From: Candidatus Saelkia tenebricola
GTDB taxonomy: Bacteria > Omnitrophota > Gorgyraeia > Kaelpiales > Kaelpiaceae
Assembly (NCBI GenBank): GCA_030765145.1
Contig: JAVCDA010000002.1
Location: 16,320-80,319, forward strand
DNA: 64,000 nt
Reading direction: 5' to 3'
Part shown: positions 18,701 through 39,451 of the stretch, one piece after another
Layout of the letters: each line of letters opens with the position of its first letter
Numbering within the stretch: position 1 is the first letter of the stretch
The notes under the pieces: generated by a model
Told to the model about the DNA's origin: nothing
The model's input: the letters and a program-made list of their open reading frames with translations, nothing else
Database searches by the model: none
Program-made: the position numbers and the translations under genes

Positions 18701-19638
18701 CTTAAATCCCCTTTGTCTTTTTTAATTAAGGTACGTTTTGATACAGCTTTTTTTATCCACCTTCTATCCTTGATAAATTCTAATACATAATGAGGCTTTT
18801 TGGGAAGCAAGAAAATCCAAAGATATATATCGTATAAAATTGTGAATGGAATATGTTTTATAAAATTCGCTAAATTTTCGTTTTTAATAAAAGTAGAATA
18901 ACGGTTTTTAATAAGCTGGAATTTAAATTCGCTTGATAAGTTGAGATATCCTAATCGTTTTCTCCTTTTCCAACCTGTTATTCCCCTATGGTGGTAAGCT
19001 ATGGCATAAGGAGTAAAATAACTGTTCCATCCTGCATTATGAGCACGCCAGTTTAAGTCTAAATCTTCCAAATATGCCTGATAATCTTCATCAAAATATT
19101 CCTGCTCCATTTTAATATCAAATAGCATTTCTTTTTTATAAAGCGCACAAGCACCTGATACACCCCAGACATAACCTTCTTCAAACTGATTTCTTTCTTT
19201 CTGTTTATAACCTCTTTCATGTGCACGCCTGGCGAGTGTCAGGAATTGACCGGTAGAATCTATTTTCTTTGTTTGTGGATTTAACAACTTGCCTGATATA
19301 GAGCCTATTTTTCTGTCTATTTTGAACTTGGGTAATACCTTTTCCAAATAATCATTGTTTAAGAAAACATCGTTATTAATGCAAAATAAATATTCCCCAT
19401 TTGAGGATATAATGCCTTGATTGTAAGATTTAGAGACCATCATGTTTTGACTGTTTTGAATTATTTTAGTCTGGGGAAAATATTTTTTTACCATTTCAAC
19501 TGACTCATCATTCGATGCATTATCCACTAAAATAACCTCAATATTTTTATATGTCTGGTTAAAAATAGAGTTAAGACAAACCTTTAAGATTTTTTTTCTG
19601 TCTTTATTTATTACGATAAAAGATACAAGTCCATTCAT
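18688..19638 (-). CDS. family 2 glycosyltransferase
   Basis: VSFIVINKDRKKILKVCLNSIFNQTYKNIEVILVDNASNDES, a GT-A N-terminal motif with a DxD region. Confidence 0.8.
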   Translation of the reverse strand: MNGLVSFIVINKDRKKILKVCLNSIFNQTYKNIEVILVDNASNDESVEMVKKYFPQTKIIQNSQNMMVSKSYNQGIISSNGEYLFCINNDVFLNNDYLEKVLPKFKIDRKIGSISGKLLNPQTKKIDSTGQFLTLARRAHERGYKQKERNQFEEGYVWGVSGACALYKKEMLFDIKMEQEYFDEDYQAYLEDLDLNWRAHNAGWNSYFTPYAIAYHHRGITGWKRRKRLGYLNLSSEFKFQLIKNRYSTFIKNENLANFIKHIPFTILYDIYLWIFLLPKKPHYVLEFIKDRRWIKKAVSKRTLIKKDKGDLRWLS

Positions 19639-22453: not shown

Positions 22454-23615
22454 ATCCTTTCAAAACCTGCTCATAAATTTGCAACAAATTCTCAGCCGTT
22501 GTGGGCCAGTTATATTTTTCTTCAGCTCTTTTTCTTGATAAAACTGCCATCTTCTCTCTTAAGGCAGGTTGAGATAACAGTTCATTTATTCCGCCAGCAA
22601 ACACAAGATGATTACCTGGTTCTACCAGAATTCCTACTCCACCAACCATATTCCTGACCTCGCCTACGTTACTTGCTACAATGGCTTTGCCAGAAGCTAG
22701 GTATTCAGCTAGTTTTAAGGGGCTTTTAGATTGAGTTATGGCATTATTTTCAAAGCAGGCTGCACAAACATCGGCTGCTGCTATATATTTTGCTGTTTCT
22801 TCATGCGGAATAAATCCTGTAAAGATAATCTTATCTCTTAGCCCTAAATCTAAAGCTAATGATTTCAGTTCGCTTAATCTATACCCTCCGCCAACTATAA
22901 AAAACATAGCTGTAGGATACCATTGAATCACAACACTTACAGCATGGATAAATAGTTCTGCATATTGTGCTCCATGCAGCTGACCTAAATACAATACGAT
23001 TGGTCCAGTTAAACGGTATTTTTCTCTTATCAGGGTATTTTTATTTTGAGGATTAAAAATAGTCAGGTCAGCTCCTACATGAGCAGATGTGGTTCTTTTT
23101 GGGGATACTCCATATTCATTTGTAGCAAGCTGTATGAGACGATTACTTGAACAAGAGATTGAATCGACAAATTTCGGTAAAGCCCTTTCTAAGATCCACA
23201 TATATATCCCTATAAGAGGAGAAGCTGGTTTACCATAAAAATAAATTTTTGTTTCCCAATCATCCCAATCATAATGAATGGGTTTGTTCTGAATCCAGGA
23301 AGCTATGATTGCAGGGATAGATGCATAATGGAAACACTTTTGAAAATGCACTATATCAGCCCATTTTATTTCTCTTAAAAGTTTAACAGTGTTTTTAAAA
23401 AGGATATTTATTCCTCTTCTTCTATCCATTGGTATGATTTCTATGTTGTGCCAAATAAACCGCTGTTTTTTTAAATCTTTTAAATGTAGCGGAAAATATG
23501 CAATCTTTACACTGTGGTTAACTTTTATAAATTCCCGAGCTAAAGATTTAATTCGTATAGTCCAGGGTTCTGAGAGATCAAATAAATCATGCGGATGTAT
23601 CATAAATATTTTCAT
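22383..23615 (-). CDS. family 1 (GT4-type) glycosyltransferase
   Basis: GT-B C-terminal motif TGFIPHEE...PLKLAEYLASGKAIVASNVGEVRNMV, with an E-x7-E-like region. Confidence 0.8.
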   Translation of the reverse strand: MKIFMIHPHDLFDLSEPWTIRIKSLAREFIKVNHSVKIAYFPLHLKDLKKQRFIWHNIEIIPMDRRRGINILFKNTVKLLREIKWADIVHFQKCFHYASIPAIIASWIQNKPIHYDWDDWETKIYFYGKPASPLIGIYMWILERALPKFVDSISCSSNRLIQLATNEYGVSPKRTTSAHVGADLTIFNPQNKNTLIREKYRLTGPIVLYLGQLHGAQYAELFIHAVSVVIQWYPTAMFFIVGGGYRLSELKSLALDLGLRDKIIFTGFIPHEETAKYIAAADVCAACFENNAITQSKSPLKLAEYLASGKAIVASNVGEVRNMVGGVGILVEPGNHLVFAGGINELLSQPALREKMAVLSRKRAEEKYNWPTTAENLLQIYEQVLKGYEFKKLRNNIHYQRKQSSTRGKV

Positions 23616-23621
23616 AACAAT

Positions 23622-26600
23622 TTAACTTCCGGGGAATATCACCATTCGCCGTAACTTTCTTAAAATCCAGAGGTAAGTTTCAGCAATTAAAGTTAATAGA
23701 ATTATTAAAACCAGATATGGCAGCTTATACATTCTCACCCTAGGTAGAATCACAGTAGATTGGATGTTTTTTTCTTTTTTAGGTAAATCTTGGATTGAAT
23801 TAACAATAGTCTTTAGCGTTTCAATGTCATGTTTCTCAACATTTATTTGTTTACCTTCCTCTATATTTGTCTCCATTACCTTAAATCCCAACTGTTTGGC
23901 AACTTCTAAGATGCGTTCTCCTCTTGTTTTTCTTATATCGTATGTATTGCCATCATACGTTTGCCAGAGATAATGCCAATTATTTTGAGGAAGAGGTTTT
24001 AAATTGTATTCAGTTATGTTTTTATATATTGCTGTTCCGGCAATTAAATGAAGTGTGTTTATTGATTTTATAGTGTTGATGTAATTGCGATTTCTTTTTA
24101 TAAATTCAATTGTTTCTTGAAATTCCTTTTCTCCTTCAGATGGAAATCCAATCATAGTAAATATTTCTGTCTCAATTCCGGCTAAAGATGATTTTTTTAT
24201 AAATTGTTCCGCATCGCTTGATAAATAGGATTTTCGCATTTTTTTTAAGACTTTATCCGATGCACTTTCAAGTCCTATTTGAAGATTAATACAACCTGCT
24301 TGTTTCATTTTTTTCAAAATAGGTATATCCATATCTTTTCGAGGTATTGCTTCTCCTGACCAGGTAATATTCAATTTGTTTTTTATAATCAAATCGCATA
24401 ATTTATCCAATACTTTAGGATTACCATTTATTAAAGGATCGCAGATTGTGAAGTTTTTTATATTGTTATGGTGAAGATGATACTTTAGTTCCTGAAATAT
24501 ATGTTCGGCAGTTCTTGATCTATATTTAGATACGAGCTCACAGTTTATGCAAAATGCGCATTTACCTGTGCATCCCCGAGACCATTCCAAAATCAATGAT
24601 TGCCCGAAGTAAAGGTTAAGATTAAAATCTTCATAAGTTGGGAAAGGTAATGTATCTAAATCCTCAATTAACTCACGAGGAGTATAAATCCATAAGCCGT
24701 TTATTTTGGAAACAGTTCCCTTTATAATTCCAGAGCATTCCTTATCAAGTAGCTCAATCAATGCTTCTTCCCCCTCTCCCACAACGAAATAGTCAATATC
24801 ATCAGATATATTATCTATAAAAATTTTACGGGAATGTTCACTTAAACATGCCGGTCCACCGAGAATAATTTTTTTTGTTTTATCACGTTGTTTTATTCTT
24901 TTAATAAATTCAATAGTAATCCGTTCTTTGGGGTCTACAATTGAAAATCCTATATAGCCTGCTTCTGTTTCAAGTATTCTATCAACTGCTTCATTTATTT
25001 TTTGATCAAAAAATTTACACACTACAGGAAACCAGTCTTCTTCACTCCAGAAGTTTTTATTTTCTACATGCCACATCAATTTAAGATCTTCTGGTGCACT
25101 ATTATAAAAATCTATATTGAAGTCACAAAGAACAGCTTTATATCCATGGTTCTTTAACATACTTGCTAAGTAAGCCATACCTACGGGAGGATTGTTAATT
25201 CCCCAGGGCGGTGTAGTAATAAGTGCTATATGAGGTTTATTGGATACACTTGTTTTTCTTTGAGGTAATGCTGTTGCTTCTGTTGTATATGAAATATCTA
25301 ATTTATTAAGAAGATTATGGACTTTTTCTACCCTTTCCATACGTATATCAAAGTTATTTACATCCCTTATGAACCAGTTGGAATCGGGATTCTCCTTGGG
25401 GAATTCTATGTGATATCTTCCAGGATTAGAAAACAATTCGGATCCTGCCATTATGAATAAAGGATTTACAGATTTGACAAAATCAATGTGGTTTTTGTTT
25501 TCTTTTATAAAATCCAGAGTTAAATTTAAATCATCTGCTGTCTCTTGTGGAAAACCGACAATAAAATATAATACATTTTGAATACCTGCTTTTTTTGTCA
25601 ATTCCAGTGTGTGTGAGGAATCTTTAGTTGAGAATGTTTTACCCATAAGATGTAATATTTTATCACTTCCGCTTTCTGTTCCGTATTCCAATCTGAAGAA
25701 TCCGGCAGCTTTCATTTTCTTAAGCAAAGACAGGCTCATATCTCTTGGTATAGCAAGACCGGTAAGGTTGATAGAGAGATGGTTTTTTATTATAAGGCTA
25801 CAGACTTCATCTAGCCATTTTAAGTCTGCATTAACTGAAGAATCTACAATTGAGAAATAAATTTTGCCCAAAGTGTTTTTGTAGAACTTAAGCTCCTCAA
25901 CTATTCTTGTGGGAGACTTTTTTTTGTAGTATTTGCTCAGAACTTTAAAATCACAGAAGGAACATTTGCCGATACATCCCCGGGACCATTCAACAGCCAA
26001 GCTGTTTTTTGCAATGTATGAACCAAGAGAAAAATTTTTATATTTTGCATAAGAATAGGAATCTAATTTTTTTAAAGTTTTTATCGAAGATGTAATTCTG
26101 CTTTTATCTTTAAGAACAATGATGTTTTCTACATCGTTTATGGATTGGTTGTATGTTATTTTATCAATCAGTTTAGTAATGGCCTCTTCACCCTCTCCGC
26201 ATACGATAACATCAACTTTATCTTTTATTAATTCTAATAATTCTTCTCGCTGCTCTTTTACAGTAACTGAAATTCCTCCCAGTATTATCCATTTTTTAGG
26301 TGCGTGTTTCTTTATCTCCTCAATCACCCATTTAATCATCAAATACATTGAATTTGAGGGAACTGAAAATCCTACGATTTTAGCATCATTGTTTTTCTCA
26401 AGAGTTTGTTTTATTTCATTAAAAATATCACTATATTTTTTTAGAAGGTAAAAAATAAATTCTGGTTTTCTCCAATATAAAGTATGGTCCATTCGCCAGT
26501 ATTTTTTGTCTTCTTCTTTTACTTTATTGTATAAGAAAATATTTATGTCCAAAACCTCAACATCAAAACCTTTATTTTCCAAAACTTCTGATATTACGGC

Positions 26601-27554
26601 CAGGCCTACAGGCGGCCTTTCAATACCCCAGGGAGGAGTGATAATTAATTGAATCTTTTTTTTAAAACTACTGGGGGTAGTTTGTGCACATTCACATTTT
26701 AGGCATATAAAATTATTATCTGGAGGAATTTCACCCTGTATTTTCTTTCTAATGGCGGTATATTCTTGTCCTGTCCAGATGTTTTGGATAGATTGTTTTT
26801 TTAAATTACCCAATATAACTTCTGATTTCCAGTCCATACAGCATAAGACTACATCTCCGTTACTCAATATGTGAATCATTTCATTAGTCCATATGGAATT
26901 GCAACCGTATATTTTTTTATGTTTTATTTTTGGAAGGATCGGTACATTTCCGGCCCGGGATATCGGATTTGAATAAACATTAATGCGAGATAATCCTTGA
27001 TTCTCCCAGAAACTTACAGCTTCTTCTATTTCTTTATCATTGAGATATGAGTTTTTAAGCATTGTTACCATGATAAAGTCAGAGATTTCACCCTTAATTT
27101 GTTTAGAGATTTTTATGAAATTCAGCATATTATCCAGTGCTTTTTCAGGATCTATTCCCATAACTGAAGATATAGTGTTGTTTCTGATGCCATGCAGGCT
27201 GAAACCTATCCAGTCAATGTTGCTCTCTATCAATCTATGTGTGAAATCAGAATCCAGTAAAACACCATTGGTAAGGATATGTGTAGAAACTTCAGGTGAT
27301 TTTTTTTTGATGTAAGTAATTTTATCCGGCAACTCTTTATCCAAAAGAGGTTCATTCATAAGATAGGGCATTATAACTTGGACTTCTTTTTGTTTTGAAC
27401 ATTCGTCGATAATGTTTTTAAAAAGATTGCCATCTATTTTTTCACCGGAGATTGTATCTTTAATATGAGGGTAGGGGCAGAAAAAACATTTCCCGTTACA
27501 TCCGGATATAGTTTGAATCATTATATGAGTTGGGAACTTAAGTTTTGGTGTCAT
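23622..27554 (-). CDS. giant three-module radical SAM protein (SPASM-type rSAM + two B12-binding class B rSAM modules) with C-terminal membrane anchor
   Basis: There are three CxxxCxxC motifs: CNGKCFFC (N-terminal; downstream SPASM-like Cys-rich region GDVVLCCMDW...FICLKCEC), CIGKCSFC and CTGKCAFC. The latter two are each preceded by a Rossmann-like B12-binding segment (ITPPWGIERPPVGLAVISEVL... and ITTPPWGINNPPVGMAYLASML...). The C-terminal hydrophobic helix is LPYLVLIILLTLIAETYLWIL. Confidence 0.85.
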   Translation of the reverse strand: MTPKLKFPTHIMIQTISGCNGKCFFCPYPHIKDTISGEKIDGNLFKNIIDECSKQKEVQVIMPYLMNEPLLDKELPDKITYIKKKSPEVSTHILTNGVLLDSDFTHRLIESNIDWIGFSLHGIRNNTISSVMGIDPEKALDNMLNFIKISKQIKGEISDFIMVTMLKNSYLNDKEIEEAVSFWENQGLSRINVYSNPISRAGNVPILPKIKHKKIYGCNSIWTNEMIHILSNGDVVLCCMDWKSEVILGNLKKQSIQNIWTGQEYTAIRKKIQGEIPPDNNFICLKCECAQTTPSSFKKKIQLIITPPWGIERPPVGLAVISEVLENKGFDVEVLDINIFLYNKVKEEDKKYWRMDHTLYWRKPEFIFYLLKKYSDIFNEIKQTLEKNNDAKIVGFSVPSNSMYLMIKWVIEEIKKHAPKKWIILGGISVTVKEQREELLELIKDKVDVIVCGEGEEAITKLIDKITYNQSINDVENIIVLKDKSRITSSIKTLKKLDSYSYAKYKNFSLGSYIAKNSLAVEWSRGCIGKCSFCDFKVLSKYYKKKSPTRIVEELKFYKNTLGKIYFSIVDSSVNADLKWLDEVCSLIIKNHLSINLTGLAIPRDMSLSLLKKMKAAGFFRLEYGTESGSDKILHLMGKTFSTKDSSHTLELTKKAGIQNVLYFIVGFPQETADDLNLTLDFIKENKNHIDFVKSVNPLFIMAGSELFSNPGRYHIEFPKENPDSNWFIRDVNNFDIRMERVEKVHNLLNKLDISYTTEATALPQRKTSVSNKPHIALITTPPWGINNPPVGMAYLASMLKNHGYKAVLCDFNIDFYNSAPEDLKLMWHVENKNFWSEEDWFPVVCKFFDQKINEAVDRILETEAGYIGFSIVDPKERITIEFIKRIKQRDKTKKIILGGPACLSEHSRKIFIDNISDDIDYFVVGEGEEALIELLDKECSGIIKGTVSKINGLWIYTPRELIEDLDTLPFPTYEDFNLNLYFGQSLILEWSRGCTGKCAFCINCELVSKYRSRTAEHIFQELKYHLHHNNIKNFTICDPLINGNPKVLDKLCDLIIKNKLNITWSGEAIPRKDMDIPILKKMKQAGCINLQIGLESASDKVLKKMRKSYLSSDAEQFIKKSSLAGIETEIFTMIGFPSEGEKEFQETIEFIKRNRNYINTIKSINTLHLIAGTAIYKNITEYNLKPLPQNNWHYLWQTYDGNTYDIRKTRGERILEVAKQLGFKVMETNIEEGKQINVEKHDIETLKTIVNSIQDLPKKEKNIQSTVILPRVRMYKLPYLVLIILLTLIAETYLWILRKLRRMVIFPGS

Positions 27555-30500
27555 GTGTTCTTAGAGAATATTCTTTCGTGAATTTCTTCATTGTGCATTA
27601 AATTGTCACATTCTTTAAAACAATCCATTTTTGCAAAATAAGGTTGGGTTTTTTTTAACAATTTAGCGCGAGCTCTAAATCCATTGTAGAGCTGAGAATA
27701 CCAGATGTCGTTGAATGATTGTAGCATAATGTTGCCCATCGGGTAATTTATACCTCTACAGCAAGGTATGATTTCTCCATTCCCCAAGAGGCGGGTGAAA
27801 AACCATCCCACATAACACGGTATCTTATCAATTCTGTTTCTGTCATAATTTCCGGTTGGGGTTCTTGATTCAATTCTTTCTTTAAAACCAATTAGATTCT
27901 CTATTTCTATATTGTTATCTTTTAAATAGTTTTCTGCTTTGATTAATTCTTCTTTTGATTTAATGTATTGATTTTCGTTTAAAAGAAGAAAATCAGTTTC
28001 TCCTTTAAAAACGTCTGCAAATGTAAAATAAACAGCATCTGCACCTGTTTCTTTGGCAAATTGTGCCATTTGGAATATTTTATCAAAATTATTGTTTGTT
28101 ATTACATTTGCGATAGTAACTTTAGTTTGTTTTCCCTTTAAGGAGTTTAATATTGTTATGTTTTCTCTGATCTTTTCAAAATCTGCAATTTTTGTTCCAG
28201 GATGCATTTGAGTATAAGTGTAAGCATCTGGAGCCCAAATACTTAGGGCCATTTCATCCAGATTGAGTTTTATTATATCTTTTAACATGCTTTCTTTGAT
28301 ATTGTAGAAATTTGTTGTAAGAGTTGTTTTTATATTTCTTGATTTTGTCAGGTCCAATAAATCCAGAATTCCTTCATAAAGCAGAGGTTCTCCCCCACCT
28401 GTAAAACGTATTATTCTTGCCCCCATACCAGATGCCTCATCAATAAAAGATGCCATTCTTTTATACGGTATTTGTTTGGCTAACCACTCAGGTGAAGGTT
28501 TATGTTCTTTAAGATGTGTAGAATACAACCAGCAGGCATTGCATTTCAACTGGCATTTATTGGTTACATCAATCACTATGTGCTCCGGACCCTGATAAGC
28601 ACATCTACCGTTAATTATCCCAGCAGTTAACTTAATGGGTGTTTTAAGCAAAGGTTTTTTGTTGATAGGTAATTGGGGAGCTTTTTTTCTCTTATATCGT
28701 TTATACTTTACAAATAGATTAAGAAAAAATCTTTCTACATGTGTAAGTGACATTATTTTTTTATGCATATGGATATTTCTTCCGATATCATCACAGCTTT
28801 TATAACAGCCAGCTTCTTCTGTATTGGGATCGTTGCCTATCAGTTTAAAAAAATTATCATTCTTCGCATAACAAAGCATCTTCTTCCGACAGTATATCTG
28901 TTTCGGCGAATTCCATATTTGAGAGAATTTTTCTTCATACAAATTACCTACAGGAAACCTGTGAGATTTAAGGCAGGTATTGATATTACCATCAGGTAAA
29001 ATCCTTGCAAATAACCAGCCTATATAACATGGAATAGCATCGATAATATTTTTATCGTATTTGGCTTCTAAAGTTTCTTTCTCCTTGCTGATTCTTCTTA
29101 AGAACTGGTCAAATCTAAAGAGATGTACTCCCTTGTAATCGAAATTGAGCATCATTTCTCTTGCCACACTTTGACATGTTTTATGTAATTGTTTTCTTTC
29201 CTCCCTATTTAAAGCTAATGCCTCAGTTTTACCGGGTATAGTATCTATCAGAGTAAATTCCACAGATTCACATTTTGTATATTGAGCAAATTCAATCATT
29301 TGTTTTATCTCATGGTAGTTTAAATTGAATATCACCTGATAAAGTTTTATATAAGGTGTTTTGTTTTTTTGTTTGTTAAGATATGTCAAATTCTCTTTAA
29401 TCTGTGCAAAAGTAGCTTCGGTTTTGTTAGGATGAGTTCTAGCATAAGTTTTTGGAGTTCCTGCCCAAACACTTACGGTTAAATGATCAACACCGATGTC
29501 GATAATACGGTCTATTTTTTCCTTACTTAGAAGCGTAAAATTAGTATTTACATAGCAAATAAGACCCAGTTTTTTTGTGTATTCTAAAATCTGCATTATC
29601 TCGGGATGCATAAATGGCTCACCGCCACCGGAATAATAAACCTCTTTTGCGCCAAGCGTCTTAGCTTCATCTAAAAGTTCCTTTATTATCGCTTTTGGCA
29701 GGTATTGTTTTTTCATCTCTTGCGACATTTTTTTTTCTTCTAAAAGAGGAGAGTTGCACCAGCATCCTATACAATCATTATTACAATCATTCGTCAGATC
29801 GATTTGAATATGAAACGGTCCTTTGTAGGCAAATTCACCGTCAAAAACACCTATTATATCCAGGTAGTGATTAATAAAATTTCTGGGGATTAAAAATTTT
29901 GTTATTCGTTTAAAAGTAGCCTTTCTTCCGTGTGTTTTAAAAGATTCTTTGAGCAGTTTTAACGGTTCTTTTTTTTTATATACACTCGACGGGTCACAAA
30001 AGCAATTTTTATCATAATCCTGTGTTTTTATTTCTAGTTCCAGTCTTGCAAAATGAGGAAAATAAGAACCGGAAAACAATTCGATTTTATGGGGCCCATT
30101 TTTAAGGTATACTTCTATTTCGGGAAAAAGTTTAAGGTGTTTTTTAGTCCAGCCCGAAGTAGAGCTTTTCATAATCTTACCAAAATATTCACCGTCTATT
30201 TTGATCTCAACAGGTCTGGGTATTTCAGCAGCATATTTACTGAAGAGCTTATAGAGACCAGGTTCATTAGTATCAAAGAGATATTCTGCAAATCCAAAAC
30301 CTGCACCGCCGTCTATAACAAGATTATTACCGAAACCATTATCTGCTTTGTTTAAATTACCCCGGGAAAAACTTTGAGAAGGAATAATAATCTTATTCTT
30401 GTTATAAATAGTTTTTATGGATGGCTGCTTTTGAAATTCCGTTTTTTTTGTATGTTCCAAAACTTTTTTATGCACCATTAAATTCATCCCCAGATTATCG

Positions 30501-33337
30501 CAAACTTTGTAACAATTTATTTTTTCGAAATATTTGTCTTTTTTATTCAGAAAACGCGTTTTATGCCTAAATTCATCATAAAGGTCTGAATTCCAAATAT
30601 GGGAAAATCTTTTTTCTTTAACATTACCTAATATTAATTCATCTGCTTTGCAGCACGGTTTTACATCACCATTTGTTGTTATGCGTGTAAAATTCCATCC
30701 TGCATAACACGGTAGAGTATCTATAAAATCCCCATCCAAATAAGTTGTTTCTTTAACGATTGAATTAACTCTTCTTATAAAAGTTTCGATGCCTAAAATT
30801 GTTAAAAGATGTACTTCAAACGGAGTGTTTTTATCTTTATCATAACAGGAAGTGCGTAAAACACATTTTTTACATGTATTGTCGGAAAAATGATATTTCA
30901 CATGTCTTACATCTTTATCAGGATAAGGTGTTTTTCCTGTACTGTAGTTACCTTTAGGGCATTTTGCCATCCTAATCCCGTTAATTAATTGAAAATTTGA
31001 GTCTATTTTCTTTAAAAATCTTCCAAAATCAGAGAGTTCTTTACGGTGACTAGGGTTATCATAAATCAATAAATCTCGATCTGATATGAAATCAGGTATA
31101 TAATCCGACCTGTTTTTGAATTTATTAAGTATATCTTCAATCTCTTCTGCTTCTTTTTTTGTAATAAGCAAATGGTCTGTTTTTCCAGGGATAGAATCCA
31201 TAAATTGAAATTCTAAATAATCAACACCCATGTTAAGAGCAAAATCGAGCATTTCAGGTATATTTCTGTAATTTACTTTAGAAATCACATTGTATATTTT
31301 AAGAGCAGGAGTATCGTTTTTTCTCGTTTTTATTAAATATTTAAGATTGTTTCCTATTTTTTCAAACATATCTTCGCTTGATCCAGGATGGGTTTTACAA
31401 TATGTCTTAGCATCCCCAGCCCATAGGCTTGCTGTAATGTAATTTAATCCTAATCGGATGAGGCGAGTAATTGTTTCTTTATCAAAAAGAGTGAAGTTTG
31501 TTATCAAATGACATCTCATTCCTCGGGCTTTTATATATTTAATAATTTCAAAAATTTCCGGATGCATTAATGGTTCTCCACCGCCTGTGATCTGTATTTC
31601 TTCGGTATCCAGCTTATGAAGTTCATCAACCAGATTCTTTATAACGTTAAGGTCAAGATGTTTTTGAAGTTCGGGATCCTGGCGATTTTTGTTTATAAAT
31701 GGTGAGTAAAGCCAGCACCCAATGCATGAAATATTGCATTTGTTGGTTACGTCAATAACAGCAATTTTAGGTCCGCAATATGCTCCGTTTCCTTTTAAAA
31801 TACCTTTAAGCAGATCATTGCTTTTTCTGGTTATATCCGTTATTTCTTTGGTTTTGGAGAATGAAGACATATGTTTTTTTACATTAAGATAAGAGTTTTT
31901 CTTTTCCCAGGCAAATTTAATTCCATAGAGTTTCACACAATCCAGAAAAAGTTTGAGTTCTTGCGGTAATGTTTTTTTAAGCAAAAGTTTGTTTTTATGC
32001 TCGAACCAGCTTCGATATGCTTTGTTTAAATAATTCTCCAATTCCTCAGGGGTGACATTCTCAATGTTTATTACCGCTGCTTTATGACCGTCAAATAACC
32101 CCCAGTCATTCGGTTCTTCCCAGCCTCGCTCTTTAAGAATATTAAAATAACTTGTTCCGGGAAATGGTGTTGTTATTGAGAACTGAACGGAATAGGGATT
32201 CAATTTTTTTGCTAAGTCAATTGTTTCTTCTATTGTTTCTTTTGTTTCGCCCGGCAAACCGAATGTAAAGGTTAGATGAGTTTTAATCCCCAGCTTGTTT
32301 GTTAAATGTATCATTTTTACAGCATGTTTTAAGTCCATGTTTTTATTGGCGTTGTCGACTAATTTTTGAACTGCGGACTCAACGCCGTATTTTACAGAAT
32401 AAAGACCTGATGAGCGAAGCTCACATAGTAGCTCTTCGTCCATTAAATCAGGCCTTGCCATAATTGCCCAAGGGAATTTTAATTTCCTATTTTTTATTTC
32501 TTTGGCAATGTTAATAAGAAATTTCTTATTAACATTTGCTGTATCATCGTCTATATAAATAGATTTAAATCCCATTTCTTTTATTAGATATTCCATTTCA
32601 TCTACAACTTTATAAGGATTGCGTAATCGGTAAGTACTACCTTGATACATAATGTGCGGCCAGAGACAAAAAATACATTCATAAGGACATCCTCTTGAGG
32701 CCCACATCTGAACAGATGGAAGAGGCATGCCTCCAGGAGCATCAACGTAGTTTTGCATTTGGATATTATTTCTATGTGGCCAGGGTAATGAGTCCAATTC
32801 TTTTATAAGAGGCCTGGGGTGGTTTTTACACAATTGCCCGGAGTGCCTGTATATCAATCCTTTAACAGATGAAAAATCCTTATTCTGTTTTATTGTTTGC
32901 GCTAATTCAAGAAGAGTTTCTTCATATTCTCCTACCATTACAAAATCTATAAAAGGTTTGTTTTCTAAAAACGACAAGTTTCTCATGTTGTATTCAGGTC
33001 CACATACAACAATCGGTGCGATATTTCTCAATTGTTCTAACAGAGATAAGTCATACTGTAATGATGGTGTTGATGTCTCTGCTACAATTAGATCAGGATT
33101 TTTTTGTTTTAAGAGTTTCATGAAATCTGATATTTCAATCTGTTCTGCAATAGCGTCTATAAACTCTGCCTGAAATCCATTTTTTATAAGTAAAGAAGTA
33201 GCATATCCCAGGAAAAATGGATAAGGTAAATAGTCTTTCTCGCTATAAGGATGTTTTAGATGAGGCCACCTGGATCCGGCTCGCACTCCCCAAAGGCCGT
33301 TACTTTTCCAGGGCATATTGGTAATTATTATTTTCAT
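27551..33337 (-). CDS. giant four-module radical SAM protein (B12-binding class B rSAM + three paralogous SPASM-domain rSAM modules)
   Basis: There are four CxxxCxxC motifs: CPYECIFC (in a B12-binding module, N-terminal ~470 aa), CNISCIGC, CNNDCIGC and CQLKCNAC. Each of the latter three is followed by GGGEP and a SPASM-like Cys cluster (CY.GW.F.R....G...PCC...C...C). The three SPASM modules are mutually similar, indicating internal triplication. There is a 4-nt overlap with the downstream rSAM gene. Confidence 0.85.
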   Translation of the reverse strand: MKIIITNMPWKSNGLWGVRAGSRWPHLKHPYSEKDYLPYPFFLGYATSLLIKNGFQAEFIDAIAEQIEISDFMKLLKQKNPDLIVAETSTPSLQYDLSLLEQLRNIAPIVVCGPEYNMRNLSFLENKPFIDFVMVGEYEETLLELAQTIKQNKDFSSVKGLIYRHSGQLCKNHPRPLIKELDSLPWPHRNNIQMQNYVDAPGGMPLPSVQMWASRGCPYECIFCLWPHIMYQGSTYRLRNPYKVVDEMEYLIKEMGFKSIYIDDDTANVNKKFLINIAKEIKNRKLKFPWAIMARPDLMDEELLCELRSSGLYSVKYGVESAVQKLVDNANKNMDLKHAVKMIHLTNKLGIKTHLTFTFGLPGETKETIEETIDLAKKLNPYSVQFSITTPFPGTSYFNILKERGWEEPNDWGLFDGHKAAVINIENVTPEELENYLNKAYRSWFEHKNKLLLKKTLPQELKLFLDCVKLYGIKFAWEKKNSYLNVKKHMSSFSKTKEITDITRKSNDLLKGILKGNGAYCGPKIAVIDVTNKCNISCIGCWLYSPFINKNRQDPELQKHLDLNVIKNLVDELHKLDTEEIQITGGGEPLMHPEIFEIIKYIKARGMRCHLITNFTLFDKETITRLIRLGLNYITASLWAGDAKTYCKTHPGSSEDMFEKIGNNLKYLIKTRKNDTPALKIYNVISKVNYRNIPEMLDFALNMGVDYLEFQFMDSIPGKTDHLLITKKEAEEIEDILNKFKNRSDYIPDFISDRDLLIYDNPSHRKELSDFGRFLKKIDSNFQLINGIRMAKCPKGNYSTGKTPYPDKDVRHVKYHFSDNTCKKCVLRTSCYDKDKNTPFEVHLLTILGIETFIRRVNSIVKETTYLDGDFIDTLPCYAGWNFTRITTNGDVKPCCKADELILGNVKEKRFSHIWNSDLYDEFRHKTRFLNKKDKYFEKINCYKVCDNLGMNLMVHKKVLEHTKKTEFQKQPSIKTIYNKNKIIIPSQSFSRGNLNKADNGFGNNLVIDGGAGFGFAEYLFDTNEPGLYKLFSKYAAEIPRPVEIKIDGEYFGKIMKSSTSGWTKKHLKLFPEIEVYLKNGPHKIELFSGSYFPHFARLELEIKTQDYDKNCFCDPSSVYKKKEPLKLLKESFKTHGRKATFKRITKFLIPRNFINHYLDIIGVFDGEFAYKGPFHIQIDLTNDCNNDCIGCWCNSPLLEEKKMSQEMKKQYLPKAIIKELLDEAKTLGAKEVYYSGGGEPFMHPEIMQILEYTKKLGLICYVNTNFTLLSKEKIDRIIDIGVDHLTVSVWAGTPKTYARTHPNKTEATFAQIKENLTYLNKQKNKTPYIKLYQVIFNLNYHEIKQMIEFAQYTKCESVEFTLIDTIPGKTEALALNREERKQLHKTCQSVAREMMLNFDYKGVHLFRFDQFLRRISKEKETLEAKYDKNIIDAIPCYIGWLFARILPDGNINTCLKSHRFPVGNLYEEKFSQIWNSPKQIYCRKKMLCYAKNDNFFKLIGNDPNTEEAGCYKSCDDIGRNIHMHKKIMSLTHVERFFLNLFVKYKRYKRKKAPQLPINKKPLLKTPIKLTAGIINGRCAYQGPEHIVIDVTNKCQLKCNACWLYSTHLKEHKPSPEWLAKQIPYKRMASFIDEASGMGARIIRFTGGGEPLLYEGILDLLDLTKSRNIKTTLTTNFYNIKESMLKDIIKLNLDEMALSIWAPDAYTYTQMHPGTKIADFEKIRENITILNSLKGKQTKVTIANVITNNNFDKIFQMAQFAKETGADAVYFTFADVFKGETDFLLLNENQYIKSKEELIKAENYLKDNNIEIENLIGFKERIESRTPTGNYDRNRIDKIPCYVGWFFTRLLGNGEIIPCCRGINYPMGNIMLQSFNDIWYSQLYNGFRARAKLLKKTQPYFAKMDCFKECDNLMHNEEIHERIFSKNT

Positions 33338-34098
33338 TACACGTTAAATTCCAACACGATTTTAAAAATTTTATGACAGCCTGCATTATATATCTTCTCG
33401 TTTAGTAATGCAGCCTGAACAAAATATCCGTTTGAGAATCTGGTTGTATTTTGGATGATTATTTGTGATACATTAATAGAGTCAATAATAGAAAATTTTA
33501 ATTTTCCAATCTCTGAAGAATTATCCCTAATTTTAAACGAAACTTCTTTTTCGTTTAGTGGAAATTTAACAATATTTTTAATATTGGTTGTTTTAGGTAG
33601 AGAAAACTCTCTATTTTTCACCGATATCTGATTATTAATGCAAGTATGATTTAAGATGATTCCAGATTGAAATTCTTCGATAGAAATGCTGTTTTCCAGA
33701 TTCAAAAACACTTCCCATATCATTGTGTTAGATTTTAATGAGATTTCCCAGAGTTGCGTAAGCGGTAAATTCCACCAGTATTGTTTTACAAGAATTTTAT
33801 TGTTATTGAGTTTCTGAAAAGAAAATTTTGATTGGATAGAGTCATGATATTTATCCAAATTTTTCAATCTACTGCTTAATCCCACATTATTTGTTAGAGA
33901 TATATCTTTAAAGTTTATATGTATCTGAGTGGGATTAGCGGTAACCCTAATATCATTTGCATTGACAGATATTGTTTTTAAGCCTTTTATTTTTTTTGAT
34001 TTTATTTTAAACGAAACATAGTCCCAGGTTTTCATAAAAGTTAATAGAACACCATTTTCTTTAAAATGATGGAAAGTTTTTTTAACTATTTCCATCAT
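33337..34098 (-). CDS. hypothetical protein, paralog of adjacent gene and of Wzt C-terminal extension
   Basis: No signal peptide. It shares motifs with ORF 34082..34762 and with the Wzt C-terminus (DISLTNNVGLSSRL vs KNIILTKNLGLYSSIY vs QAITTDLGIFASY; QYWWNLPLTQLWEISLKSNTMIWEV vs GEWINAPHRQTWDFILTDNTLQWNIT). Confidence 0.45.
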   Translation of the reverse strand: MMEIVKKTFHHFKENGVLLTFMKTWDYVSFKIKSKKIKGLKTISVNANDIRVTANPTQIHINFKDISLTNNVGLSSRLKNLDKYHDSIQSKFSFQKLNNNKILVKQYWWNLPLTQLWEISLKSNTMIWEVFLNLENSISIEEFQSGIILNHTCINNQISVKNREFSLPKTTNIKNIVKFPLNEKEVSFKIRDNSSEIGKLKFSIIDSINVSQIIIQNTTRFSNGYFVQAALLNEKIYNAGCHKIFKIVLEFNV

Positions 34099-34762
34099 TT
34101 TCTTCTATCTTTATCGTAGTTTGTAAAGTTATAGAATAATCTTCTGCTATTGATTGTTGGGAAGGATTTATAAATAGCGTTTGTATTATTCGGGCGGAAT
34201 CATTAGGAGATGTGTTTTCTATGGCAATAAGAGCATTTGGTTCTGTTAGAGGAGGAACAATTTTTAAAAGCGGAAGTTTTTTTGTTTTATCTGCACTTAA
34301 TATAACTTCTACCCCTTTTATCTTAGGACTAGACCATATTCTATCCCATAGTAAACCGTTATAATTAGTAAAAAACTCAGGAAATTTACCTGCTGCATAA
34401 TCATTGATTTTCCAAGAGGTATACATCTCATTCAGCATGAAATTTTGCTGAATCATATTAATTGTAAAATTATTTAGATTCTTACAAGTAATATTCCACT
34501 GTAATGTATTGTCTGTAAGAATAAAGTCCCATGTTTGCCGGTGTGGTGCATTAATCCATTCCCCATAAAGTTTAAGCTTATCTTGAGTTATCTCAATAAC
34601 TTCCCAAGTTGCAAAACGGGAATCAAACCATTTTTGTTCATGATATATACTGGAATATAACCCCAGGTTTTTTGTTAAAATTATGTTTTTGTATGATAAA
34701 CTGCAATATCCCAGTAGAAAATCAATTTGAATGCGTTTGTTTTTTAAAGACAGTTCTTTCAT
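34082..34762 (-). CDS. hypothetical protein, paralog of adjacent gene and of Wzt C-terminal extension
   Basis: See the previous feature; 17-nt overlap with the downstream gene and 4-nt overlap with wzt. Confidence 0.45.
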   Translation of the reverse strand: MKELSLKNKRIQIDFLLGYCSLSYKNIILTKNLGLYSSIYHEQKWFDSRFATWEVIEITQDKLKLYGEWINAPHRQTWDFILTDNTLQWNITCKNLNNFTINMIQQNFMLNEMYTSWKINDYAAGKFPEFFTNYNGLLWDRIWSSPKIKGVEVILSADKTKKLPLLKIVPPLTEPNALIAIENTSPNDSARIIQTLFINPSQQSIAEDYSITLQTTIKIEENDGNS

Positions 34763-36621
34763 AGGCTTAAGGTTATCAGAAAGTCATTTTGATTTATAAT
34801 AGATAAAAATTTTATATTTATTCCGACATCATAGTTGTCTTTGACTATTTCAATAGTTGTTTCGCGGTTAAGCTTAATATTAAGCGGCTGAATTAAATTT
34901 TTCGTCGATTCTAATCTCAAATTGCTTGCCGTTAAAATGCTTGTTTTTTCTGTAACAGTTCCTTCTGTATGGTCGGTTGTATAATGTTTGTAAAGCAAAT
35001 CAGGAAATATGACAAAACCTATTGATATAGCAGGGGTTGATGAAGAGAGCTTAAACGTTACCTTGTTTTTATGTGTAGCAGATGAAAATAGAAGCGATGC
35101 ATTGTTTTTGATAAAATATATTGAGAATTGGGTGTTAGGAAAATCTTCAATATTTATGTCTTGGCACTTGAAATCTTCAAGCGCTTTTTTTTGAGTGTTA
35201 CTCAAGAAGTTTATTCTTTTGATAAGCGGTGATTGTATTTTTTTGTTCTGAATTAACGAATTGTTGATTTCCGTTAGTAAATCAGCAATAATCAGAAGGT
35301 TGTTTGACTGTTTTATCTGATGAGTATTTTTTTCTGTGAGTAACATTTTTAAGCTTATACTGGATTCAGTAACAGGAATTCGTACCACTCGCGCAGGATG
35401 ATTGAAATAGTGATTAAATAGTTCAAAACACACTGTTTTATCCGAGTAGGTGAATAATGAAACTTCCGGATAGTCTATTTTTGATTGAGGAATTATCTTT
35501 AAATGATTCGAGGACATTTCGCCTTGTTTATACCATTCACTCATTAATTCCTTATCTACCGGCGGTAGTTCTAAAACATCATTTTGCGTCTGGAATTTTG
35601 AATAGATATCACAAAACATTAAGTTTAATTCCATCTCAGGAAATTCTGATTCTAGAAAAAAACTTATATTTTCTTGGGATATTTTTATCTTGAATATACA
35701 TACTGGATTATCGGCATATATCCCTTTAGCTTCAATATAATCGAATTTTTCAGTTGTCTTCCACGATAAATCCGTAGAATATATTATCGCGTTATTTTTT
35801 TTATAAGAAGCAAATATGCCCAAATCTGTTGTTATGGCCTGATTTTTATGCCTTATAGTTATTCTTCCGTTGTTAAAAACCAGATTGGTTTTTTCATTTT
35901 TAACACAAGCTATCCCCCACAAATTCCCGGATAAATCTGTAAATATATTTTTTACTTCTTCCATGCTTCCTTGAGCAAATATTTTGCCTTTTTCCAAAAC
36001 AATGCATCTTTGACATAATAGATTAGCTAAATCAAAATTATGTGTTACAAGGATTACTGTTTTACCGCTCGATATAATGTTTTTTATTTTTATGATGCAT
36101 TTTTTTTGAAAATGAAAATCTCCGACAGCTAAAATATCATCTATAATCAATATCTCAGGGTCGGTATGAATTGCCAGTGAGAATGCCAATCTTAAGTACA
36201 TTCCCTGAGAATATGTTTTCAATGGCGCGTATATAAAATCCTTTAATTCTGAAAACTCAATAATATTATTTAAAACGTTTTGATCATGAATTCCATAAAA
36301 TTTAAGAACCATTTTAATGTTCTCATATCCTGTAAGTTCAGGGATAAAACCTGCTTCCAGTTCAAAAATACCCCGCACATTTCCGTTAACAGTGATTTCT
36401 CCTTTATCAGGCTTAATTATCCCCGCTATTGATTTTAAAAGTGTAGTCTTGCCTGCTCCATTAGACCCTAAGACAGCCAGTACCTCCCCCTTATATACAG
36501 TAAGAGTAATATCATCTATAGCTTTGATTTCTTTTTCTATCTGTTTTTCAGGATAGCTGAATTTTATCCTGTAATTTTCAGAAACATTTTTTACTGTAAC
36601 AGCAATATTCTCATTTACCAT
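34759..36621 (-). CDS. wzt: ABC transporter ATP-binding protein, Wzt/TagH/KpsT (polysaccharide exporter) type, with ~380-aa C-terminal extension
   Basis: Walker A GSNGAGKTT; signature YSQGMYLRLAFSLAI (the YS.GM..RLAF pattern typical of Wzt/TagH); Walker B ILIIDDILAVGD. The long C-terminal region is consistent with a Wzt-type substrate-terminus-binding domain. Confidence 0.85.
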   Translation of the reverse strand: MVNENIAVTVKNVSENYRIKFSYPEKQIEKEIKAIDDITLTVYKGEVLAVLGSNGAGKTTLLKSIAGIIKPDKGEITVNGNVRGIFELEAGFIPELTGYENIKMVLKFYGIHDQNVLNNIIEFSELKDFIYAPLKTYSQGMYLRLAFSLAIHTDPEILIIDDILAVGDFHFQKKCIIKIKNIISSGKTVILVTHNFDLANLLCQRCIVLEKGKIFAQGSMEEVKNIFTDLSGNLWGIACVKNEKTNLVFNNGRITIRHKNQAITTDLGIFASYKKNNAIIYSTDLSWKTTEKFDYIEAKGIYADNPVCIFKIKISQENISFFLESEFPEMELNLMFCDIYSKFQTQNDVLELPPVDKELMSEWYKQGEMSSNHLKIIPQSKIDYPEVSLFTYSDKTVCFELFNHYFNHPARVVRIPVTESSISLKMLLTEKNTHQIKQSNNLLIIADLLTEINNSLIQNKKIQSPLIKRINFLSNTQKKALEDFKCQDINIEDFPNTQFSIYFIKNNASLLFSSATHKNKVTFKLSSSTPAISIGFVIFPDLLYKHYTTDHTEGTVTEKTSILTASNLRLESTKNLIQPLNIKLNRETTIEIVKDNYDVGINIKFLSIINQNDFLITLSL

Positions 36622-36668: not shown

Positions 36669-37430
36669 TCAAATTTTTTTCAGGATTGAATTCTCCATTT
36701 TTTTATATAAAAAATAAGCCAGAATCAAAAATAATACAGCAAATATGAAAGCGTAAACATTGCCTCTACCCATAAAAGATGAGTAGTTTTCCAGCAATAC
36801 GCTTCTGTAAAGATCTATGAAATATGAAAGAGGATTACAATAAATTATAAATCTAAATCTTAACGGTACCATCAGAGGATTGTAGAAAACAGGTGTTAGC
36901 CAAAATAAAACCATAAGAACTGTTCCTAAAATGTGTTCTAAGTCTCTGATGTATAAATTGGTTATAGAAATTATAATCGTAACTGCTGCCAAAAATATAG
37001 TAAAGGAAACTGTTGGAATAATCAAGAGTATGAATTTATATAATAAAGCAGGATTATAAAAAGCAAAAACAGGCAGAAGTACCGCTATTCCTATTAAATG
37101 TTGAATTAGATTTGAACATGTTACAGAGAGAGGATACAAGAGATGAGAAAATGGAAATTGATGCATCATGGGTTTTTCTCTTACAAAAGCCTGGGTAGCT
37201 TCCGTTGTTAGATTGGTAAAATACAACCAGGGAATAAGCCCTGAAAGAACAAAAATATGAAAATCTTTCTGATCTATTTTGAGTACTTTCATAAAAACAA
37301 ATGTTATAGCAATCATTAGAATTATAGGTATCAAACCTGCCCACAAAATACCCAGAAAGGTAGAAGCATATTTGAATTTTAAATTTCTAATTGTTAAATC
37401 TCTTAAATTCTCGATGGTTTTTATTAGCAC
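36669..37430 (-). CDS. wzm: ABC-2 type polysaccharide exporter permease (Wzm/TagG-like)
   Basis: Six TM helices in 253 aa; adjacent to and co-oriented with the Wzt ATPase. Confidence 0.75.
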   Translation of the reverse strand: MLIKTIENLRDLTIRNLKFKYASTFLGILWAGLIPIILMIAITFVFMKVLKIDQKDFHIFVLSGLIPWLYFTNLTTEATQAFVREKPMMHQFPFSHLLYPLSVTCSNLIQHLIGIAVLLPVFAFYNPALLYKFILLIIPTVSFTIFLAAVTIIISITNLYIRDLEHILGTVLMVLFWLTPVFYNPLMVPLRFRFIIYCNPLSYFIDLYRSVLLENYSSFMGRGNVYAFIFAVLFLILAYFLYKKMENSILKKI

Positions 37431-38314
37431 CTGTTTCTCTCCTTGATAAAACTTTGCAATTCTTTTAATGCTGTTTTTGTATAGCTATAATTGCTTATTA
37501 ATAAAAATATTAATCGCGGCAGGTCATATAATAACAGGGATAAAATAATATAGGCCGTATTTTTAAGTTTAAAATATTTTAAAATAAGAAAATATCTGTT
37601 TCTAAAAGAAAGGTATTGGGCGTGTTTTGAATTTATATTGCTCCCGCCGCGATAATGATATCCAATAGCTTCGGGGATATATTCAAAACGGTATCCTTTA
37701 TTCTGAGCTCTGATAGCAACATCGAAATCTTCCACCAGATAATGTAGTTTAGAATCGAAATATTCTCCATTTGCACCAACTATGTTTTCTAACATCGATC
37801 TTTTATATACAGCTGCACATGCACATGGTCCGATGACTTTTAAAGAAGAGGCTTTAAAATTTTTATATAATTTTCCTGCTCCGTGGTCATAGAAACGATA
37901 GAATTTAGTTAATATAATACCTAAAGAATCAATACGCTTAGGATCTCTCATGTTTAAAACAGTACCTCCCCACATACCGGTATCAAACGATGCATTTAAA
38001 CTTCTGTGGATAATTTTAGAAATATAGTCTGGTTGTAAAATAACATCAGAATCAAGTGTCATAACATATTCAGAATTTGTGTTTTTTATAACCTGGTTTC
38101 TGGCAAAACATACTCCGTAATTTTTAATATTCCTAATAACAGGAATATTAAACTCGTTTAAAATATCCGCTGTATCGTCTTGGGAATTGTTATCAACAAC
38201 CCTTATTTCCACATAGGGATAATCTTGAGCTAAAACTGATTTTAGACATTTTTTAATAAACTTCCCGGCATTATATGCAGGTATTATCACCACTACCTTA
38301 GAATAACTATCCAT
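37424..38314 (-). CDS. family 2 glycosyltransferase
   Basis: VVVIIPAYNAGKFIKKCLKSVLAQDYPYVEIRVVDNNSQDDT, a GT-A N-terminal motif. Confidence 0.8.
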   Translation of the reverse strand: MDSYSKVVVIIPAYNAGKFIKKCLKSVLAQDYPYVEIRVVDNNSQDDTADILNEFNIPVIRNIKNYGVCFARNQVIKNTNSEYVMTLDSDVILQPDYISKIIHRSLNASFDTGMWGGTVLNMRDPKRIDSLGIILTKFYRFYDHGAGKLYKNFKASSLKVIGPCACAAVYKRSMLENIVGANGEYFDSKLHYLVEDFDVAIRAQNKGYRFEYIPEAIGYHYRGGSNINSKHAQYLSFRNRYFLILKYFKLKNTAYIILSLLLYDLPRLIFLLISNYSYTKTALKELQSFIKERNRC

Positions 38315-38348: not shown

Positions 38349-38945
38349 CTAATCCTTCTTTCCGTACTTATTGAAATATAGTATTTTCTCCAATGGTCTT
38401 TTAGGTACGTAATGAATACCTTTTTTATCTTGGTAGTATTTTGTTTTTTTATCTGTTTCTATAGTTTTTGGGGTCTCTTTCGGATATCCTAATGCAATTA
38501 AGGAATCAAGCTTTACGTGTTTTGGTAAGCTTAAAATTTTAGAGATTTCTTTTTTATTTATTGCGCCCAACCAACAGCTTGCTATTTTAAAACCCAATGC
38601 CGACAACATGATGTTTTCAGCCGCAGCACCGAGATCCCTTAAATCAGATTTTGAGCTTCTAGTACAATTTATAGCAATCCCTACATAATAAAGAGGTCTT
38701 TCCTTAATACCAGGAGTTCCTTGGGGATATATATATGCAGCCCATTTTGTATAAGGGAATATTCTTTGTGTCGTTTTGTTATTGGTTATTAATATATATT
38801 CCAAAAACTGTAAATTTGCAGCGCTCGGCGCACATCTGGCAGCATTAATAATCTTTTTTAAAACAGGAAGTGTTATTTTACGTCGAGAAAATTTTCTAAC
38901 AGTTCTTCTTTTGATAATCAAACTATATAACTCATTTTTTTCCAT
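38349..38945 (-). CDS. nitroreductase-family flavoprotein
   Basis: KRRTVRKFSRRKITLPVLKKIINAARCAPSAANLQ is a classic nitroreductase N-terminus (R.S.R.F....I......I..AA..APS..N.Q). Confidence 0.75.
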   Translation of the reverse strand: MEKNELYSLIIKRRTVRKFSRRKITLPVLKKIINAARCAPSAANLQFLEYILITNNKTTQRIFPYTKWAAYIYPQGTPGIKERPLYYVGIAINCTRSSKSDLRDLGAAAENIMLSALGFKIASCWLGAINKKEISKILSLPKHVKLDSLIALGYPKETPKTIETDKKTKYYQDKKGIHYVPKRPLEKILYFNKYGKKD

Positions 38946-38950
38946 ATTAA

Positions 38951-39451
38951 TTAAAATTTTTCCCAGTGCAGCAATTCGTCAAGAGGTCTCTTCTCTGCCT
39001 TAGTAATTAAATCATTTTTAGGATAACCCAAAGATATTATGCTTATTAGATTGTATTCTGATGGTGCTTTTAACAGTATTTTTATATCTGGAACATAATC
39101 TTTTTTATCTCCGGCAATCCAGCAGGATGCTATTCCATAACTCGTTGCAGCAAGCAAAATATTTTCAGTTGCAGCTGAACAGTCCTCAAGGTAATATTTC
39201 GTTGGCCTGGAGAATATAACTATACAAGCAGAAGCTTCTTTTAAAAAAAGTGCGTTTCTGTTTGTTAAGCGGGAAATTTCTTTAAGAGTTTCTTTGTTCT
39301 TTATTACAATAAATTCCCAAGGTTCTTCTCCTCTTGCTGTAGGAGCCATATGACCGCAGTCGATTAAGTCTAATAAGATTTCATCGGAGATTAGTTTGTC
39401 TTTATATTCCCTAATGCTGCGTCTTTTTTTTATTATTTCTCTTGTCCCCAT
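38951..39451 (-). CDS. nitroreductase-family flavoprotein
   Basis: KKRRSIREYKDKLISDEILLDLIDCGHMAPTARGEEPWEF is a nitroreductase N-terminus; it lies in tandem with the previous nitroreductase. Confidence 0.75.
   Translation of the reverse strand: MGTREIIKKRRSIREYKDKLISDEILLDLIDCGHMAPTARGEEPWEFIVIKNKETLKEISRLTNRNALFLKEASACIVIFSRPTKYYLEDCSAATENILLAATSYGIASCWIAGDKKDYVPDIKILLKAPSEYNLISIISLGYPKNDLITKAEKRPLDELLHWEKF

Follow-up and report, generated by a model that had tools for sequence, protein, structure and literature searches.

Split genes for a repeat domain shared by the Wzt ATPase and radical-SAM enzymes in an Omnitrophota Wzm/Wzt cluster

The 64,000-nucleotide stretch of Candidatus Saelkia tenebricola DNA analyzed here (the window) carries a gene cluster in which two short open reading frames (ORFs), ORF226 and ORF253, lie between the gene of the exporter ATPase Wzt and that of a radical S-adenosylmethionine (SAM) enzyme of 1928 amino acids, rSAM1928. 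We find that Wzt residues ∼236–421, ORF226, and ORF253 residues ∼38–246 are three copies of one ∼210-residue all-β domain family. This family belongs to a conserved design of the phylum Omnitrophota that is divided in another way in the Saelkia/Kaelpia lineage: there, the final Wzt repeat and the N-terminal radical-SAM module are detached, and the radical-SAM enzymes are fused to each other. We favor, with moderate confidence, the reading that combines this split architecture with a shared, non-catalytic substrate-recognition domain coupling radical-SAM tailoring to export. The genes and domains on which this reading is built are the following, with E-values for the repeat domain taken from a broad hidden Markov model (HMM) of the family.

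34759–36621, minus strand: Wzt, 620 amino acids
35917–36621, minus strand: ATPase (nucleotide-binding) domain of Wzt, residues 1 to ∼235 (PF00005, E = 7e-21)
35359–35916, minus strand: C1 of Wzt, residues ∼236–421, a first-type copy of the repeat domain (E = 2e-23)
34762–35331, minus strand: C2 of Wzt, residues 431–620, lineage-specific, no domain-HMM match, kept in orthologs
34082–34762, minus strand: ORF226, a free-standing single-domain protein of 226 amino acids (E = 8e-49 over the whole protein)
33337–34098, minus strand: ORF253, 253 amino acids, a leader of ∼40 residues followed by one copy (E = 1e-25, residues ∼38–246)
27551–33337, minus strand: rSAM1928, a radical-SAM giant (Pfam and NCBIfam matches)

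Wzt, ORF226, and ORF253 are all minus-strand genes at the positions given in the original prediction. Their homology, which it had proposed from motifs seen by eye, is confirmed by pairwise and profile alignment and by an independent HMM. One of the two motifs occurs in all three proteins (Wzt, NQAITTDLGIFASY; ORF226, NIILTKNLGLYSSI; ORF253, DISLTNNVGLSSRL). The other is present in both small ORFs (WINAPHRQTWDFILTDNTLQW and WWNLPLTQLWEISLKSNTMIW), whereas its Wzt version is degenerate. ORF226 and ORF253 match each other directly (BLASTP, E = 2e-9), and the profiles of their orthologs, drawn from four syntenic loci, align over 190 columns (hhalign probability 97%, E = 5e-11, z = 25 against column shuffles). 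The BLASTP match of ORF226 to Wzt is marginal (E = 0.006). The ORF226 family profile aligns with Wzt residues 232–430 over 177 columns, nearly all of both sequences (hhalign, E = 2.7e-6), and scores 45.5, whereas column shuffles average 14 (standard deviation 2.8) and reach at most 22.4 (z = 11). For ORF253, direct BLASTP finds no match to Wzt, and alignment of the ORF253 family profile with Wzt does not reach significance (E = 0.07 and 0.024, z = 2.5), so that the kinship of these two holds only via the family profile.

A search with a three-member profile retrieved 532 cluster representatives at E ≤ 1e-3. The broad HMM was rebuilt solely from 236 full-length copies in other proteins and recovers all three window copies at the E-values listed above, and no other ORF in the six-frame translation of the window falls below E = 1. 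The similarity had been claimed for the entire ∼380-residue extension of Wzt. It holds for the first ∼190 residues (∼236–421), whereas residues 431–620 show no significant similarity.

Among the 150 top representatives of the family, 82 carry a Walker A motif at the N terminus, and 79 of these 82 have 2–8 copies of the domain. Overall, the copy number in the Walker A-type members ranges from 1 to 8 and is most often 3, with the first copy beginning at about residue 234. The domain is also fused to radical-SAM/SPASM enzymes, and one protein (P0043) combines the ATPase, five copies, and a radical-SAM enzyme in a single chain. Fusions to GT39/PMT_2 membrane glycosyltransferases were seen in 8 of 33 scanned members, and a fusion to a sulfatase was seen once. 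In the GT39/PMT_2 proteins, which are from Omnitrophota (P0025, P0087, P0096, P0125, P0142, and others), 2–3 copies lie C-terminal to the transferase. All source-named members that were looked up belong to Omnitrophota. A scan of GTDB species representatives yielded 23 loci, most of them labeled Omnitrophota, three labeled “uncultured Planctomycetia,” and three without a phylum name. The scan was run with a sub-family alignment, since one spanning diverse copies was too divergent, and its 23 loci are therefore biased to one subtype of last copy.

Gene order in these loci, where the contig covers it, is uniform. The gene for the ATP-binding cassette (ABC)-2 permease Wzm is followed by that for a Wzt whose 2–6 copies end exactly at its C terminus, and then by a frame that overlaps the Wzt stop and encodes a leader of ∼40 amino acids and one copy. 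In 20 of the 23 loci, this frame continues via a linker of ∼25 amino acids into a radical-SAM enzyme. The radical-SAM part in 18 of the 20 fused loci is B12-binding and aligns from residue 1–3 of rSAM1928 with E about 1e-150. Leader and copy are free-standing in L012 and L026, as in the window. Four of the 23 loci hold a truncated Wzt only, the repeats of L022 are split over two frames, and L017 ends at a contig edge. The order Wzm, Wzt, copy, radical SAM is the same in the four syntenic loci L001–L004 and, where covered, in L005–L027. A Wzm homolog lies directly upstream of Wzt in L001–L004 and also in 19 of the 23 GTDB loci, namely all those with a contig that extends beyond Wzt on this side. 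The link between radical-SAM tailoring and export that the original prediction had suggested thus receives strong comparative support from the 20 other loci in which a copy is fused to a radical-SAM enzyme beside Wzt.

In L022 (7096–10639), Wzt is split after the first repeat into a 512-amino acid frame and a 724-amino acid frame with three copies. It reflects either an independent second fission or a frameshift in the assembly.

The positional classes of copies provide a reference for the pieces found in the window. C1 of Wzt matches first copies best, in 35 of the 40 top phmmer hits as well as by profile (hhalign score 163 versus 31–97 for the other classes; class-HMM score 86 versus 21–52). 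ORF226 matches last copies best, in 33 of the 40 top hits, with an hhalign score of 263 versus 128–178 and a class-HMM score of 140 versus 78–108. By these comparisons, ORF226 is assignable as the detached last repeat of Wzt.

For ORF253, the leader and the gene order are informative. The leader profile of the ORF253 family aligns with the fused leaders (hhalign score 22.7, E = 1e-4), a score that none of 200 shuffles reaches, whereas the single ORF253 leader sequence is not significant against the leader HMM (7.6 bits, within the shuffle range). Taken together, ORF253 and rSAM1928 run collinear with the fused proteins, whose linker marks the exact point of the break. The matching leader and the collinearity with the fused enzymes therefore point to ORF253 as the N-terminal module split off from the B12-radical-SAM enzyme, an assignment based on synteny, collinearity, and leader. 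The original prediction had taken both ORFs for extra modules or specificity swaps, but both map onto the Omnitrophota-wide architecture, ORF226 onto the last Wzt repeat and ORF253 onto the radical-SAM N-terminal module.

The leader itself (∼35 amino acids; ORF253 residues 1–40, 33979–34098; L005–L026) is amphipathic and partly hydrophobic, with the consensus NNYxKFKxHLKxxGLFYALWRGVKYFIFLVRK. It precedes the radical-SAM-associated copy across the phylum, and its role is possibly membrane association or docking.

C2 shows no significant similarity to the small ORFs or the family HMMs (E = 0.5 overall), and its interpretation as an internal repeat of C1 was rejected (hhalign, E = 0.26). An HMM made from C2 matches its own orthologs only, and the region is conserved only within the Saelkia/Kaelpia clade. 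Its AlphaFold model, made from three sequences, reaches a pLDDT of 39 and is too poor for use in fold assignment. A weak in-register match to the profile of middle copies was found (hhalign score 20.3, E = 0.015), and C2 may be a degenerate or diverged middle repeat copy. Wzt (620 amino acids) and ORF226 (226 amino acids) add up to 846 amino acids, compared with about 900–940 for the usual three-copy Wzt. This sum, although somewhat short, fits a three-copy Wzt that was cut before the last repeat, with C2 as the diverged middle copy.

Are the detached pieces functional genes? The Wzt stop codon and the ORF226 start codon overlap as ATGA, ORF226 and ORF253 overlap by 17 nucleotides, and the ORF253 stop codon overlaps the ATG of the radical-SAM gene as TAATG. 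ORF226 and ORF253 are translationally coupled, and because all junctions overlap in this way, the pieces are probably made together. The three-gene split with overlapping stops and starts is found in five loci, the window and L001–L004, which come from different species and share 30–68% amino acid identity. ORF226 has nine orthologs with 57 invariant columns, and nine separate proteins of 219–226 amino acids are on record. The ratio of nonsynonymous to synonymous substitution rates (dN/dS) is 0.11–0.13 for ORF226, 0.14–0.21 for ORF253, and 0.07 for the ATPase domain; the synonymous rate is near saturation, and these ratios are rough. Both ORFs are under purifying selection.

The window derives from a metagenome-assembled genome, and the split of Wzt in L022 is possibly erroneous, so that an assembly frameshift, or ORFs that are decaying remnants, might be suspected here as well. 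We consider either origin practically negligible in view of the same overlapping arrangement in four further, diverged loci, the nine separate ORF226-type proteins, and dN/dS values of 0.11–0.21. Coupling, conservation in five loci, and purifying selection therefore argue that ORF226 and ORF253 are detached parts of a conserved design and not extra paralogs.

ORF226 and ORF253 have no significant match in Pfam or NCBIfam. In the multi-copy proteins of the family, Pfam matches are limited to the ABC, radical-SAM, or PMT parts and leave the domain itself uncovered, and a sequence profile search of the PDB with the domain gave nothing meaningful. The AlphaFold model of ORF226, calculated from an 11-sequence alignment (pLDDT 83.8, pTM 0.85), is all-β with ∼18 strands. 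Compared with the PDB by Foldseek, this model has 48 matches at E ≤ 1e-3, with query-normalized TM-scores of 0.45–0.65 and sequence identities of 6–12%. The best match is the putative aldose 1-epimerase 3nre (E = 5e-7, TM-score 0.65), and others include the P1 domain of YidC, N-terminal domains of cellobiose phosphorylases, polysaccharide lyases, and accessory domains of the glycoside hydrolase families GH38 and GH36. By structural similarity of the predicted fold, the domain is assigned to the galactose-mutarotase-like supersandwiches, most of which bind carbohydrates or serve glycan enzymes as accessory domains. It differs from the known domains of this type in its low sequence identity (6–12%), in having no profile match to a solved chain, in its genomic and domain context, and in the absence of evident catalytic residues.

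Since the best structural match is a putative aldose 1-epimerase, the domain could itself be a mutarotase- or epimerase-like enzyme acting on a sugar substrate. This is very improbable in our view. Seven columns are at least 70% conserved with the same residue in all four positional classes (Thr-30, Gly-34, Trp-53, Trp-78, Tyr-114, Phe-127, and Pro-164 in ORF226 numbering). They contain no acid/His catalytic set and, being mostly aromatic or structural, do not support catalysis. Sequence identity to the fold matches is 8–12%, and tandem arrays of 2–8 copies are atypical of enzymes.

Apart from these seven positions, the arginine of an ARxxQ/GRxxQ motif (ORF253 residue ∼225) is near-invariant in the family and kept in all five ORF253 orthologs; the window ORF253 has a tyrosine at this position (NGYFVQ).

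The position of the module on the exporter invites comparison with the classical Wzt binding domain (PF14524; E. coli O9a, PDB code 2R5O; Aquifex aeolicus, PDB codes 6O14 and 7K2T). Like this domain, the Omnitrophota module is appended right after the ATPase hinge of an ABC-2 glycan exporter and is presumed to recognize the substrate. The original prediction had gone further and regarded the two ORFs as additional soluble paralogs of the O9a-type Wzt β-sandwich domain, recognizing a capped glycan terminus. The location, C-terminal to the Wzt ATPase domain, and the all-β character of the sequence agree with that proposal. However, PF14524 has no match at E ≤ 1 in Wzt, ORF226, or ORF253, and 33 family members likewise lack one at E ≤ 1e-3. 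The closest solved relative of the window Wzt, that of A. aeolicus (6amx, 7k2t; E = 1e-56), aligns with query residues 23–234 only, although full-length Aquifex chains of 404 residues, which include the classical binding domain, were aligned. There is thus no sequence relationship beyond the ATPase domain.

The folds differ as well. The classical Wzt binding domain, of ∼150 amino acids, forms strand-swapped jelly-roll dimers (PMC9445017), whereas the Omnitrophota domain has ∼210 amino acids, a predicted ∼18-stranded supersandwich fold, and occurs in tandem arrays of 2–8 copies and also on radical-SAM tailoring enzymes and GT39 transferases. The ORF226 model matches mutarotase-like folds, and no Wzt chain is among its 50 best PDB matches. 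The domain neither matches the Wzt_C profile nor has the form of a ∼150-residue jelly roll and is therefore not a member of the Wzt_C family; the predicted fold argues for a different, non-homologous module at the same position of Wzt. Together with the placement of the copies in a conserved architecture, which leaves none of them extra, this makes an O9a-type origin hardly credible. From the earlier interpretation, the homology, the placement of the module where Wzt carries its substrate-recognition domain, and the tailoring–export link stand, whereas the O9a-type identity and the notion of extra paralogs do not.

The remainder of the cluster, from its upstream to its downstream end, consists of the following genes; the window outside the cluster holds housekeeping genes.

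37424–38314, minus strand: family 2 glycosyltransferase (GT2) at the upstream cluster end (PF00535, E = 1.8e-28)
36669–37430, minus strand: Wzm, the ABC-2 type permease partner of Wzt (PF01061, ABC2_membrane, E = 1.5e-12)
23622–27554, minus strand: second radical-SAM giant, 1310 amino acids (Pfam: three Radical_SAM stretches, B12-binding, SPASM)
22383–23615, minus strand: family 4 glycosyltransferase (GT4; Pfam)
21356–22453, minus strand: GT4 (Pfam)
19642–21363, minus strand: B12-radical-SAM enzyme (Pfam)
18688–19638, minus strand: GT2, downstream (Pfam)

The adjacent Wzt-like ATPase and ABC-2 permease genes (PF00005 and PF01061) identify an ABC-2 glycan exporter of the Wzm/Wzt type. The top NCBIfam matches of Wzt are TagH and the galactan Wzt/RfbE, both under their equivalog cut-offs. 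The upstream GT2 holds the same position in L001–L004, and GT4 homologs come after the radical-SAM genes in the majority of related loci. Directly upstream of this GT2 lie two nitroreductase-family genes (38349–39451), a position kept in L001 (two genes) and in L002–L004 (one gene).

rSAM1928 comprises one B12-binding radical-SAM module and three radical-SAM/SPASM modules (Pfam: four Radical_SAM stretches, three SPASM, and one B12-binding). An insert of ∼230 amino acids between radical-SAM modules (residues ∼940–1170, 29828–30520) has no Pfam match at E ≤ 0.1. By eye it is β-rich with GxG and aromatic motifs, and it could be a further binding module. The two giants (1928 and 1310 amino acids, with four and three Radical_SAM stretches) are lineage-specific fusions. 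Elsewhere, the radical-SAM modules are separate genes, of ∼400–500 amino acids in many loci (1237, 409, 415, and 388 amino acids in L007; 499, 484, 397, 416, and 384 amino acids in L012).

A single recognition module is probably common to tailoring and export. Since it occurs on the exporter as well as on the first tailoring enzyme, the two probably recognize one and the same polymer feature. In the mechanism we propose, the domain would be a non-catalytic recognition module of predicted galactose-mutarotase-like supersandwich fold and would bind the lipid-linked glycan built by the GT2 and GT4 enzymes of the cluster. Present on first tailoring enzyme and exporter alike, the module would let each of them read the same polymer, and tailoring would be coupled to export. 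Glycan binding is suggested because the fold is typical of carbohydrate-binding accessory domains, because all fusion partners of the domain are proteins of glycan handling or tailoring (Wzt, radical SAM/SPASM, GT39/PMT_2, and sulfatase), and because the cluster is rich in glycosyltransferases and contains a Wzm/Wzt exporter. Free-standing copies would function in trans. There is a precedent for ORF226 in the classical Wzt binding domain, which works in trans when it is expressed apart from a truncated transporter (PMC9445017).

The main rival to substrate recognition is that the domain serves in protein–protein docking or oligomerization, homotypic contacts among the copies of Wzt, the free proteins, and the radical-SAM enzyme assembling a tailoring–export complex with no direct binding of substrate. 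The same domain on both partners, exporter and radical-SAM enzyme, would be expected for such contacts, arrays of up to eight copies look scaffold-like, and classical Wzt binding domains dimerize by strand exchange (PMC9445017). The P1 domain of YidC shares this fold but is not established as a lectin. We nevertheless regard docking as rather unlikely, given that the fold family is mostly carbohydrate-binding and that the fusions to GT39/PMT_2 and sulfatase argue mildly for a shared substrate over a shared protein partner. If the GT39-fused copies are periplasmic, this would favor substrate binding over partner binding.

Several observations weigh against the substrate-recognition reading and the split on which it builds. 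Residues 431–620 of Wzt remain without explanation under the shared-domain scheme. The domain part of ORF253 does not separate the last class from the radical-SAM N-terminal class, whether by hits, hhalign, or class-HMM. The direction of change, fission or fusion, is taken from the distribution of the two states. Glycan binding and the hand-off are inferred, YidC P1 has a supersandwich fold as well although it does not function in carbohydrate binding, and the substrate could be a non-glycan polymer. A more specific version of the substrate-recognition reading is possible, and we put it forward tentatively: a previously undescribed recognition domain of Omnitrophota, unrelated to the classical Wzt binding domain and shared by the exporter, the first radical-SAM enzyme, and in some proteins GT39-type transferases, would certify the radical-SAM-modified glycan and hand it over from tailoring to export, and the arrays of 2–8 copies would bind multivalently along the polymer and not only at a terminal cap.

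A similar logic is known from peptide maturation. The recognition elements (RREs) of ribosomally synthesized and post-translationally modified peptides (RiPPs) are winged-helix domains that bind peptide leaders, and they either form the N terminus of a radical-SAM/SPASM maturase or have a small gene of their own next to that of the enzyme. The Omnitrophota domain resembles them in that a recognition domain is either fused to a tailoring enzyme or encoded by a neighboring gene. In contrast to these elements, it is all-β and occurs in the context of glycosyltransferases and Wzm/Wzt.

Glycan export by ABC transporters is known from a few proteobacterial systems and from Aquifex, in which a single jelly-roll domain of Wzt reads the terminal cap. 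In the literature on Wzt with radical SAM and on Omnitrophota with radical SAM, we found no description of the domain or of the cluster. What is new is a family of Wzt-associated recognition modules that occurs in tandem arrays and is shared with tailoring enzymes. It constitutes a new annotation family, since more than 500 cluster representatives are now labeled hypothetical or named for their ATPase, radical-SAM, or GT39 part only. The gene boundaries, which vary between lineages from fused to free-standing copies, represent a natural experiment, and ORF226 and ORF253 are small soluble proteins suited to learning what the module binds. A whole phylum thus uses a different, unannotated module, with up to eight repeats on the ATPase and a further copy on the radical-SAM tailoring enzyme.

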